The notes beneath the pieces were generated by a model. It did not search any database and was not told the origin of the DNA. It saw only the letters and a list, made by a program, of their open reading frames with translations. From assembly GCA_951406725.2 (NCBI GenBank), contig OX597838.1, positions 15,004,001 through 15,068,000 of the forward strand: 64,000 bases of DNA. Reading direction: 5' to 3'. Positions 16,321-64,000 of this stretch are shown in pieces (the first letter of the stretch is position 1; every line of letters begins with the position of its first letter). The translations under genes and the position numbers were made by a program. The stretch comes from Octopus vulgaris (Eukaryota).

Positions 16321-16707
16321 CTTATTTCTTTATTGCCTACAAGGGGCTAAACACAGAGAGGACAAACAAGGACAGACAAACGGATTAAGTCGATTACATC
16401 GACCCCAGTTGGAAACTGGTACTTAATTTATCGACCCCGAAAGGATGAAAGGAAAAGTCGACCTCGGTGGAATTTGAACTCAGAACGTAACGGCAGACAA
16501 AATACGGCTACGCATTTCGCTCGGCGTGCTAACTGCGTAGCCGTATTTTGTCTGCCGTTACGTTCTGAGTTCAAATTCCGCCGAGGTCGACTTTGCTTTT
16601 CATCCTTTCGGGGTCGATAAATTAAGTACCAGTTGCGTACTGGTGTCGATCTAATCGACTGGTCCCCTCCCCCATAATTTCTGGCCTTGTGCCTAGAGTA
16701 GAAAAGA
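16321..16707. mobile_element. Two SINE-D copies fused head-to-head (fold-back)
   Basis: 16321-16530 on minus and 16533-16707 on plus; ~120-bp inverted arms. Confidence 0.85.
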
Positions 16708-22903: not shown

Positions 22904-23317
22904 CTATTTCTTTACTACCCACAAGGGGCTAAACACAGAGAGGACAAACAAGGACAGACAAACGAATTAAGTCGATTACATCGACCCCACTGCGTAACTG
23001 GTACTTAATTTAAGGACTCCGAAAGGATGAAAGGCAAAGTCTACCTCGGCGGAATTTGAACTCAGAACGTAACGGCAGACGAAATACCAATTTCTTTATT
23101 ACCCACAAGGGGCTAAACACAGAGGGGACAAACAAAGACAGACATAGGTATTAAGTCGATTACATCGACCCCAGTGCTTAACTGGTACTTAATTTATCGA
23201 TCCCGAAAGGATGAAAGGCAAAGTCGACCTCGGCGGAATTTGAACTCACAACGTAACGCAGACGAAATACCGCGAAGCATTTCGCCCGGCGTGCTAACGA
23301 TTCTGCCAGCTCGCCGC
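22904..23317 (-). mobile_element. SINE-D dimer with one head and an imperfect TSD
   Basis: Internal junction at 23087/23088; atataatttaatac (22890-22903) versus atacaatttgatac (23318-23331). Confidence 0.88.
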
Positions 23318-45825: not shown

Positions 45826-47500
45826 TTAAGGCAGCGTGCTCGCAAAATCCAAAACGAATCGCAGAATTTACTTTGGAGCAATTACTGCTGACTCTTTACG
45901 TTCTGAGTTCAAATGCCACCGAGGTCATTTTTACCCTTCATCCTTTCAGAGTCGATGAAATAAAGTCCCCTGGGGTTGATGTAATAGACTAGCACCCGCC
46001 CACTAAAATAGCTGGTCTTGTGCCAAAACTTGAAATAGGAATTTTTACTGCTCTGGATTAAAGCGGCGAGCTGGCAGAACCGTTAGCACGCCGGGCAAAA
46101 TACCCAGCAGCGTTTCATCCGTTTTTACGTTCTGAGTTCAAATACCGCCGAGATCATTTTTACCCTTCATCCTTTCAGAGTCGATGAAATAATGCCCCCT
46201 GGGGTTGATGTAATAGACAAGCACCCGCCCACTGAAATAGCTGGTCTTGTGCCAAAATTTGAAATAGGAATTTTTACTATTCTGGATTAAAGCGGCGAGC
46301 TGGCAGAACCGTTAGCATGCCGAGCAAAACGCCTAACAGCATTTCATCCGTCTTTACGTTCTGAGTTCAAATACCGCCGAGATTGACTTTGCCTTTCATT
46401 TTTTGGGGGTCGATAAAGTAAGCACCAATAAAGCACTGGGGTCGATGTAGTAAACTGTGCTTCTCCCTTATATTTCAGGCTTTGTGCCTATAATAGAAAG
46501 GATTATCATCATTCCCGTTAGAATCGTTAGAATGCAGGGAAAATTTCCTCGCGGCATTTGTATCCTGAGTTGAAATTCCGCCGACGTTGACTTTGCCTTT
46601 TATCTTTCGGGGTCGACAAAATAAATATCAAGTAAACTTTGGGGGTCGATGTAACCGACTTAACCCCCTCCTCTGAAATTGCTTCTGTCAAAAATTTGAA
46701 CCCATTATTATTAAAGCGGTGAGCTGGCAGAAACGTTATCACGCCGGGCGAAAAGCTTTGCCGTATTTCGTCTGCCGCCACGTTCTGAGTTCAAATTCCG
46801 CCGAGATCGAACTTTGCCTTTCATCCTTTCGGGGTCGATTAAATAAGTACCAGTTACGCACTGGGGTCGATATAATCGACTTAATCCGTTTGTCTGTCCT
46901 TGTTTGTCCTCTCTGTGTTTAGCTCCTTCCTTGTGGGTAGTAAAGAAATAGGTATTTCGTCTGCCGCTACGTTCTGAGTTCAAATTCCGCCGAGGTCGAA
47001 CTTTGCCTTTCATCCTTTCGGGGTCGATTAAATAAGTACCAGTTACGCACTGGGGTCGATATAATCAACTTAATCCGTTTGTCTGTCCTTGTTTGTCCTC
47101 TCTGTGTTTAGCTCCTTGTGGGTAGTAAAGAAATAGGTATTTCGTCTGCCGCTACGTTCTGAGTTCAAATTCCGCCGAGATCGACTTTGCCTTTCATCCT
47201 TTCGGGGTCGACTAAATAAGTACCATTTACGCACTGGGGTCGATATAATCGACTTAATCCGTTTGTTTGTCCTTGTTTGTCCTCTCTGTGTTTACCCCCT
47301 TGTGGGTGTGGGTAGTAAAGAAATAGATATTCCGTCCAGTTATACACCCCGAGTTCAAGTTCCACCGAGGTCGACTTTGCCTTTTATCGTTTCGGGGTTC
47401 GATAAAAATATTTACCAGTGACGTACTGGGGTCGGCGTAATCGACTTAATAATCGACTTAATCCCTCCTCCGAAACTGCTGGCTTTGTGCCGACAATTGA
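45826..47500 (+). mobile_element. Cluster of ~8 co-oriented SINE-D units, including a ~228-bp tandem duplication and a 4-unit nest (46713-47500)
   Basis: Junctions tail|gtatttcg at 46951/2 and 47136/7, and tail|atattccg at 47326/7. Confidence 0.9.
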
Positions 47501-60472: not shown

Positions 60473-60853
60473 GTGGAGGCGCAATGGCCCAGTGGTTAGG
60501 GCAGCGGACTCGCGGTCGTAGGATCGCGGTTTCGATTCCCAGACTGGGCGTTGTGAGTGTTTATTGAGCGAAAACACCTAAAGCTCCACGAGGCTCCGGC
60601 AGGGATGGTGGTGATCCCTGTTGTACTCTTTCACCACAACTTTCTCTCACTCTTACTTCCTGTTTCTGTTGTACCTGTATTTCAAAGGGCCGGCTTTGTC
60701 ACTCTCTGTGTCACGCTGAATATCCCCGAGAACTACGTTAAGAGTACACGTGTCTGTGGAGTGCTCAGCCACTTACACGTTAATTTCACGAGCAGGCTGT
60801 TCCGTTGGTCGGATCAACCGGAACCCTCGTCGTCGTAACCGACGGAGTGCTTC
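60473..60853 (+). mobile_element. SINE-A full length
   Basis: Near-identical to 55017-55400; flanks tgtgatttct / tgtaatttct. Confidence 0.92.
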
Positions 60854-62604: not shown

Positions 62605-63127
62605 GAAGGAAGAAAGAAATGCTTAAACCAAGTCGGTATACATTATACAGAGCCATTAATAAATGAGCAAGCAATGACGAGGTTCTCTTATAAACGCTGG
62701 CTGTTCAAATATTTCTGATAAAGTAGCGTCGTTACAGAGTGTGTTATTGAAGAAAATCTAGAATATGTGTATGTGTGCATGCGGTGTGTGAGTGTGTGTT
62801 TGTCAGCTTTTTGTATGAATGTATATATATATATGTATGAAAGTATGAAAGTATGAACGTATGAAGAACGTATGATCGTATGTACATTTGTTTGCTTAAG
62901 GCAACCAGCTATAAACACAATTGGCATTAAATATTTAGTTAGCAATAAGCGCTTTGGCAAAATCCATTAGTAGCCGGACGGCGTATGGTTGGTTGTTTTA
63001 TTAACTATATACACCAGATAAAAAGATGGGGGTCTAGAATTCTAGAACAAACGTCGGAAAATAGATAACACGAAAGATAAAAACACCATATTGCGATAGC
63101 GTACCTCAGAGAAACGAAATAGGAAAC

Positions 63128-63733
63128 AAGGCGGCGAGCTGGCAGAATCGTTAGCACGCCGGGCGAAATGCGTAGCCGTATTTCGTCTGCCGTTACGTTC
63201 TGAGTTCAAATTCCGCCGAGGTCGACTTTGCCTTTCATCCTTTCGGGGTCGATAAATTAAGTACTAGTTACGCACTGGGGTCGATGTAATCGACTTAATA
63301 CCTATGTCTGTCATTGTTTGTTCCCTCTGTGTTTTTAGCCCCTTGTGGGTAGTAAAGAAATAAGTATTTCGTCTGCCGTTACGTTCTGAGTTCAAATTCC
63401 GCCGAGGTCGACTTTGCCTTTCATCCTTTCGGGGTCGATAAATTAAGTACCAGTTACGCACTGGGGTCGATGTAATCGACTTAATCCCTTTGTCTGTCCT
63501 TGTTTGTCCCCTCTGTGTTTAGCCCCTTGTGGGTAGTAAAGAAATGGGTATTTCGTCTGCCGTTACGTTCTGAGTTCAAATTCCGCCGAGGTCGACTTTG
63601 CCTTTCATCCTTTCGGGGTCGATAAATTAAGTACCAGTTACGCACTGGGGTCCGATGTAATCGACTTAATCCCTTTGTCTGTCCTTGTTTGTCCCCTCTG
63701 TGTTTAGCCCCTTGTGGGCAATAAAGAAATAAG
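63128..63733 (+). mobile_element. SINE-D trimer with a single head
   Basis: Junctions at 63363/4 and 63547/8; imperfect TSD aaataggaa on both flanks. Confidence 0.92.
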
Positions 63734-64000
63734 AAGCAAAATAGGAACTTGAATACAGCGGCTTGATCTGTTCGTAGACATAGCAGCCAAATATCCCTCA
63801 AATAGCATACGGTGGCCTTTCAAAAGCAAGAATTTAACGTATACACGATCCATTGAGCTGTTGGTAGCTTTTAGAGTCTTTTCTTGACGGTTATGGAAAT
63901 GAGTAGATTATGCGAGGATATTTTTGTCTTTTATCTTTCATTTGCTTCAGTTATTGGACTGCGGCCATGCTGGGGCACCGCCTGGAAAGATTTCGCCGAA

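Follow-up and report, generated by a model that had tools for sequence, protein, structure and literature searches.

A tRNA-derived SINE array with a single head

In a 64-kb window of Octopus vulgaris DNA (the whole stretch analysed, 64,000 nucleotides), the array at 63128–63731 consists of a tRNA-type SINE head followed by three bodies, each of which starts from SINE position 50 (Table 1). By the usual box consensus, the head contains an A-box-like motif (63140–63150) and each body a B-box-like motif (63204–63214 in unit 1), and there is a closing GGCGG/CCGCC stem; ARAGORN called no tRNA gene at the SINE head. The repeat is dispersed, with 101,678 exact matches to its tail genome-wide and target-site duplications of 9–20 nt, and its 3' tail is held in common with a LINE, whose last ~44 nt align with it at 77–88%. 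These are the properties of a tRNA-derived SINE.

Table 1. Features of the array and its flanks (positions in the window)
Feature	Position	Strand	Remarks
Array-wide target-site duplication, 5' copy	63110..63125	+	16 nt, 2 mismatches to 3' copy
tRNA-like SINE head, positions 1–49	63128..63176	+	single occurrence
A-box-like Pol III motif	63140..63150	+	presumed from sequence
Hairpin	63160..63189	+	5' arm 63160–63171, loop 63172–63177, 3' arm 63178–63189
SINE positions 50–62	63177..63189	+	identical to the target duplication of the LINE
Unit 1, body and tail	63177..63362	+	youngest subfamily marker TAATACCTATG; T5 run at 63332
B-box-like Pol III motif, unit 1	63204..63214	+	presumed from sequence; recurs in units 2 and 3
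Junction 1	63362/63363	+	
Unit 2, headless, from position 50	63363..63546	+	older subfamily body, TAGT tail
Junction 2	63546/63547	+	
Unit 3, headless, from position 50	63547..63731	+	CAAT tail
LINE-related 3' tail, ~44 nt	63688..63731	+	similar to the Tx1-like LINE specific for position 50 at its 3' end; units 1 and 2 have the same tail
Array target-site duplication, 3' copy	63732..63747	+	

The three units differ in origin. Unit 1 carries the variant taatacctatg, absent from units 2 and 3. A preliminary description of this DNA had called the variant diagnostic, and rightly so: it marks a large subfamily, TAATACCTATG, with 17,315 exact matches genome-wide. Units 2 and 3 differ by one base in positions 52–220 and otherwise only in their last 13 nt. 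None of 2,989 cross-array pairs of their subfamily is as similar, so these two units are same-source copies and not independent insertions. As judged from these sequences, at least one unit of the array has a different source, and local duplication or host-templated copying likely produced one. Unit 3 is likely the original host body. Two non-consensus letters at the junctions are compatible with either order of events. With three units, the array is shorter than a SINE-derived satellite, which has at least four homogeneous middle monomers.

BLAST with the first unit gave 38 matches in the window, including three further arrays with the same junction. Two arrays of the window with the position-50 junction lie at 22905–23317 (−) and 46713–47451 (+). 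A different repeat with a tRNA-like head at 60476–60720 (+) is unrelated to the array by BLAST.

SINE subfamilies and the fixed junction

The same head and core carry four tails, of which T1 is young, T3a intermediate, and T2 and T3b old (15–16% divergence from consensus). The TAATACCTATG subfamily is the least diverged within T1 (2.9% vs 4.1–4.6% and 5.8–5.9%). In an unselected sample of 864 kb (the 64-kb window and 80 stretches of 10 kb), T1, T3a, T2 and T3b were each found as the last unit behind the junction. T3a was found behind the junction 32 times and once as a head-bearing solo copy (7/8 behind the junction in the unselected set), and flanks two LINE insertions as a copy that has its own head.

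In this 2.8-Gb, microsatellite-rich genome, 33,530 sequences match the tail-to-position-50 junction exactly, versus 0 for the reversed control. The unselected sample holds 81 T1-tailed elements (41 solo, 40 arrays). Among its 84 non-first units, 77 start at 50/51 (25 of them in one 26-unit array, L084), four at 17–22, one at 31 and two at 1–2. Free headless copies are rare, since only 3 of 79 complete elements begin at 47–51; 65 begin at position ≤13. A second junction site lies at head position 17, with 3,251 exact matches, and is used by tails ending GAAATAAGAA (loci L141–L170). At L194, a different element with a T1-like tail sits at position 17.

The earlier statement that every headless unit starts immediately 3' of the hairpin loop holds for both headless units here and for most others, but 'every' is too strong given the position-17 site. 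The insertion point also has to be shifted: the duplications of the LINE (see below) and of solo SINEs place it before G50, one base inside the 6-nt loop. The SINE duplication follows directly after GAAATA in 20 of 35 solo or terminal copies, and microhomology at insertion averages 2.6 nt. Short microhomology of the tail was abandoned as the sole determinant of the site after the site-specific LINE was found, but it may still help targeting.

Other arrangements of head or body were also seen. At 16321–16660 of the window, SINE copies in opposite orientation (T1 on −, T3a on +) meet in the head region, which may reflect a 5' inversion or an opposite-strand insertion. Old T2 copies at 45896–46449 (+) stand in tandem with a period of 229 and a different junction, and look like a DNA-level duplication. 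Outside the window, at G000:C10:17996023–17996502, eight matches at 64–65 nt spacing apparently represent the head (1–65) repeated in tandem.

A candidate Tx1-like LINE at position 50

At locus L027 a non-SINE sequence ends in a T1-like tail at position 50. We clipped this sequence before the tail and used it as a query; 40 of 241 candidates were scored and the best 30 of 40 matches examined, one of them the query's own locus. Among these 30 loci, 28 run into SINE position ~50 (27 by BLAST, one by eye), one does not, and one is unreadable; the threshold for target specificity used by Kojima is >20% of flanks in one repeat. Twenty loci were extended upstream. Five carry full-length copies (about 5.2 kb), one a near-full copy and 14 5'-truncated copies. 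At the 5' end of all six longer copies, positions 50–62 recur in a form of the type G(A)TATTTC(G/T)TC; two of the six lie in heads and four at T1 tail junctions. The 14 truncated copies have neither host head nor duplication at the 5' end; no duplication of at least 10 nt was found around truncated LINE + SINE composites, a result that gives no support to 3' transduction. The host at the 20 loci is T3a in 11, T1 in five, T2 in one and T3b in one, with two not called.

Stop-free fragments of different LINE copies match zf-CCHC, Exo_endo_phos (E 4e-5), RVT_1 and zf-RVT in Pfam, the zf-CCHC and Exo_endo_phos matches falling just below the curated cut-offs. Together the fragments would make up an ORF1 with a zinc knuckle and an ORF2 with an APE endonuclease, a reverse transcriptase (RT) and a C-terminal zinc motif, as in the Tx1 clade. 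Among the protein homologues, which have the same domain order, are one from Argonauta (53%) and one from alligator named 'transposon TX1' (36%). The domains and the latter homologue point to a Tx1-like LINE. The exact LINE fragment is absent from the protein collection. In PDB, one ORF2 fragment had no match and another matched L1 endonucleases only weakly (E 0.2), and a genome search with RVT_1 returned, among 30 loci, only unrelated LINE families, none with the partner tail.

SINE and LINE have a common tail, a common site and a similar age, but differ in duplication length and in specificity. The SINE lies outside SINE heads about half the time (41/81 solo), whereas nearly all copies of the LINE are on target. 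Duplications measure 11–13 nt for the LINE and peak at 15–17 nt for the SINE, so the true partner of the SINE may be a sister of the position-50 LINE. A repeat with a related 3' tail lands in or beside (TATC)n (L034, L074, L155, L033, L086, L142, L199) and is probably a sister Tx1 family or its passenger; microsatellite targets are known for Tx1 families (PMC4494074).

Two LINE loci show additional rearrangements. At L367:2501–2812, SINE positions 156–233 occur in four tandem copies just upstream of a full-length LINE insertion, and at L294:1279–3034 an unrelated LINE fragment splits a T1 tail.

Young units within older copies

Some insertions retain their full head. A full head 0–20 nt after GGTATTTCGTC, the pattern of a retained head with a duplication, has 144 matches genome-wide. 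Of 29 distinct loci read, 15 insertions are in a head, 13 at a junction and one is ambiguous. The downstream tail end was found at 22 of the 29 loci, and at 20 of these 22 the sequence then continues into a SINE body. The duplications are mostly 11–20 nt long, and some repeat private letters on both sides. The window contains an array at 1937–2516 (−) in which a non-seamless full copy is flanked by the 50–62 duplication plus extra letters and which ends in an old T2 body.

At 90 composite loci, chosen by host-type pattern (427 matches), divergence of the adjacent T1 unit is 5.4% or 4.7%, against 15.0% for T2 hosts (n = 35) and 16.1% for T3b hosts (n = 20). Mismatch between the flanking duplications is 0.022 for solo T1 (24/50 scored), 0.038 for T1 + T1 (16/34) and 0.117 for solo T2 (12/37). 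For T1 followed by T3a, T2 or T3b it is 0.087–0.093 (13/35, 7/11 and 5/8 scored). Arrays are ordered from youngest (5') to oldest (3'). The youngest subfamily stands to the left of another type 29 times and to the right three times (p 3e-6), and in 75 arrays the last unit is more diverged than the first, versus the reverse in 35, with seven ties (p 2e-4); many of the loci compared were chosen by pattern, though not by array position.

The heads of the arrays are mosaics of host and incoming sequence. In 43 seamless T2/T3b composites (seamless and non-seamless being assigned by regular expression, with a few visible miscalls), divergence of the head from T1 is 0.10–0.23 at positions 4–40 and 0.04–0.05 at 41–67. 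With baselines computed with CpG masked, the T2 marker A38 is present in 15 of 27 T2-hosted composite heads (solo T2 31/37, solo T1 2/44), and the same heads carry the incoming-type letters T52 (25/27) and T61 (23/27). A test for a host-derived A at position 50 gave 1,184 versus 857 in the control, a weak signal.

We considered that seamless units hide host positions 51–67 as a duplication. This failed at first junctions, where mismatch at 62–67 was 0.29 versus 0.31 for shuffled pairs. First units rarely keep the host letters at 51–67, so an extra trimming or conversion step is needed.

Proposed route of insertion

From the shared site, the LINE duplications, the age order and the mosaic heads we infer the enzymology, the partner and an annealing step as follows. 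The SINE is probably copied by the endonuclease and RT of the Tx1-like LINE, or of its sister, and inserted into older copies of its own family at position 50; we hold this reading, drawn from sequence comparison, with reasonable confidence. The APE endonuclease would nick the bottom strand before GGTATTTCGTCTG. Reverse transcription would begin right after GAAAUA, probably aided by pairing of a read-through GGUAUUU with the primer. The far end of the cDNA, homologous to the head of the host, would then anneal to it and replace part of it, for a net gain of one headless unit (50–233) and no visible duplication; a failure to anneal would leave behind a full head and an 11–20-nt duplication. Each junction would rebuild the target, so a chain would be extended at its 5' end, where its youngest unit stands. 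Slippage or unequal exchange would then multiply existing units.

Possible inheritance of chains, and local duplication

Not every unit needs its own insertion. Kinship of units, as judged by distances, sharing of rare variants and subfamily order, is closer within arrays than between them. The distance between adjacent T1 units is 0.080 versus 0.102 across arrays. A rare variant is shared by 55 of 127 adjacent pairs versus about 11% between arrays, and at least two by 30 of 127 versus 37 of 5,000 random pairs; 72 of the 127 share none. Middle units often resemble their right neighbour in the 5' part and their left neighbour in the 3' part, as unequal exchange would give. At L084:869–5750 (−), 26 homogeneous units with array-specific variants are long enough to count as a SINE-derived satellite, which is seeded on the position-50 junction. 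Local duplication accounts for a sizeable share of later units. The original preference for serial insertion over slippage is thus sound for unit 1 against units 2 and 3, which belong to another subfamily, and for most first junctions, but not for the same-source units 2 and 3 themselves.

A broader version of this argument is that the junction had only one or a few origins, and that whole chains have since been transcribed through, retrotransposed and expanded in DNA. Consensus units lack a T4 run, the terminator, so chains can be transcribed through, and solo copies often end GG, GGT or GGTATT, from which source RNAs may read through the junction. T3a stands nearly always behind the junction, as an inherited dimer arm would; the rare variants shared by neighbours fit as well. 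Single duplications surround whole arrays, and some are perfect: at L211 and L220, old-host composites have perfect flanking duplications, as copying of the whole chain would give, and these chains were probably copied whole. As the general origin of the arrays, however, inheritance is unlikely. One site is common to hosts with four different tails and from two age classes, and the flanking duplications age with the host and not with the first unit. Heads mix host and incoming sequence, age polarity is strong, the same base is used by an unrelated LINE, and T3a occurs with its own head around two LINE insertions. The process very likely contributes as a secondary route.

Possible template switching between RNAs

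Mixed chains could also be made in one insertion if the RT stalled at the head hairpin and jumped to, or if RNAs were ligated with, the tail of another RNA. The 3' arm of the hairpin is able to pair with the tail, a single duplication surrounds the array, and different subfamilies often occur in one array, as the adjacent pairs without a common rare variant indicate. This route is very unlikely: under it, arrays should lack an age order, their flanking duplications should be young and their heads purely incoming, all contrary to observation, and the LINE and SINE copies flanked by duplicated 50–62 are left unexplained.

The hairpin in the head

The hairpin described earlier between the A and B boxes is real as a predicted fold. 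The stem CGGGCGAAATGC, the loop GTAGCC and the stem GTATTTCGTCTG appear in the MFE fold as well as in the centroid fold, lying between the box-like motifs, and RNAfold extends the stem by one G-C pair to 13 bp with a 4-nt loop. Compared with shuffles, folding is only modestly better for the whole unit (z −1.5) and no better for a headless unit alone (z +0.4). The reported complementarity of the tail end to the target also stands, for GAAATA and TATTTC are reverse complements of each other.

Both cuts might be directed by a hairpin or cruciform extruded from the DNA of the head. The target duplication of the LINE (50–62) coincides with the 3' arm (51–62), an overlap that explains the original impression that the hairpin is involved, and a 5-bp GAAAT/ATTTC mini-stem is retained at junction targets. 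Full-length LINE copies nevertheless have the identical duplication at tail junctions without the 12-bp 5' arm. Because such junctions are also used as targets, the hairpin looks dispensable for targeting; a small structural role of the mini-stem at junctions is possible. Nor does hairpin strength follow use. The DNA hairpin is strongest in T3b, a perfect inverted repeat (−15.6 kcal/mol vs −6.4 for T1), but position 50 is occupied in only 3 of 22 T3b copies of the unselected set versus 7 of 8 in T3a, with its weak G-T stem (T1 16/58, T2 3/41), a comparison confounded by subfamily age and made with a reference T3a head borrowed from T1. Complementarity of tail and target is unnecessary in the sister element, given that its GAAA tail is also found with (TATC)n, which has no TTTC to pair, and the position-17 site has no such loop/stem boundary. 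A nick directed by structure is accordingly very unlikely. The preliminary description had left open whether a DNA nick with seamless homologous 5' joining would be structure- or sequence-directed; our data favour the latter, for which a matching site-specific LINE has been found.

A self-cleaving RNA as an improbable alternative

The other branch of that description, self-cleavage in the anticodon-like loop followed by circularization and rolling-circle, multimeric reverse transcription as in retrozymes, is extremely improbable: the 184-nt monomer falls in the 170–400 nt range of animal retrozymes (PMC7229834) and the junction lies at a loop/stem boundary, but arrays begin with a head, combine units of mixed source and subfamily in age order, and use the same base as a protein-coding LINE. 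The monomer holds no type I hammerhead or other small ribozyme: an Rfam scan of 63000–63850 gave no ribozyme at E ≤ 10 (one chance match, Sphinx_2, E 5.6), and the hammerhead core CTGANGA is absent from both strands. Assembled contigs from four sequencing runs, labelled as four organisms, bridge the junction; they reveal neither ends nor strand, and they cannot demonstrate a circle because the junction is encoded in the DNA more than 33,000 times.

Implications

The insertion route proposed above could form part of an intragenomic homing cycle, in which the SINE is both the passenger and the landing pad of a site-specific LINE and in which insertion renews decayed copies and can revive a dead copy as a source gene. 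We offer this tentatively. If true, each insertion would write a young B box, body and tail, often with part of the A-box head, into a decayed related copy and would restore the target letters. At tens of thousands of loci, one endonuclease would then drive promoter rejuvenation, swap the tails of subfamilies and seed satellites. About a third of SINE tails stand at one base of a relative (33,530 junctions vs 101,678 tails, counted with different patterns).

The arrays provide a countable natural record of how the 5' end of non-LTR cDNA is joined when homology is given, an open step of target-primed reverse transcription, and suggest a concrete route for the exchange of SINE modules and the start of SINE-derived satellites. 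They point to an APE endonuclease whose target is short and defined. The units would be misdated in a repeat annotation that counts each as an independent SINE insertion or takes them for plain tandem duplications.

Comparison with known systems

Octopus OR2 has been named as a CORE SINE (PMC4758252). L1-Tx1 families are present in an octopus repeat annotation, the accessible text of which does not use the words 'nested', 'target' or 'partner' (PMC13282606). Our search of the full-text literature, with subscription papers, supplements, Repbase and Dfam outside its scope, turned up no paper in which a partner LINE directs a SINE into the SINE's own head.

Arrays made of SINE parts in tandem within one duplication are known as SINE-derived satellites of squamates (PMC10702118), long homogeneous examples of which also have a counterpart here in the 26-unit array, and as TSD1-(SINE)n-TSD1 arrays of the blood clam (PMC11481361). 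Both are put down to unequal recombination, and the accessible parts of these reports describe no fixed endonuclease site or age polarity. The non-LTR retrozymes of animals are likewise tandem monomers of similar length, but have a type I hammerhead and circular RNA (PMC7229834), whereas the octopus array has a Pol III-type head, a LINE-type tail and no ribozyme.

Tx1-clade LINEs target other mobile elements or microsatellites, as do Tx1L in Tx1D of Xenopus and Kibi and Koshi in microsatellites (PMC4494074), and the sister element here lands in (TATC)n. In the cases covered by the accessible text of that study, the LINE does not also carry its target element as a passenger, unlike what is proposed for the octopus SINE. 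Closer still is the crocodilian pair of SINEU-3, a SINE, and Tx1-Mar, a Tx1 LINE, which target the same site in another repeat (Kojima, 2015; PMC4494074). As here, tandem SINE copies arise by sequential insertion and some SINE families are less specific than the LINE. The target there is a Mariner DNA transposon and whole tandem copies are separated by a duplication (PMC4494074), whereas the octopus target lies in the tRNA head of the SINE itself. Because the target is inside this head, joining is homologous and later units are headless.

In the R1 and R2 elements of Drosophila rDNA (Stage and Eickbush, 2009; PMC2718515), a fixed bottom-strand nick and re-insertion into a rebuilt target also give arrays, and 5' junctions are precise when the RNA carries upstream target sequence that can anneal. 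R1 and R2 are autonomous elements in rDNA, whereas here a non-coding SINE brings the homology as its own head and the targets are dispersed. By analogy, the octopus system would work like targeting of the SINEU-3/Tx1-Mar type combined with homologous 5' joining of the R1 type, the new part being that the SINE is its own target.
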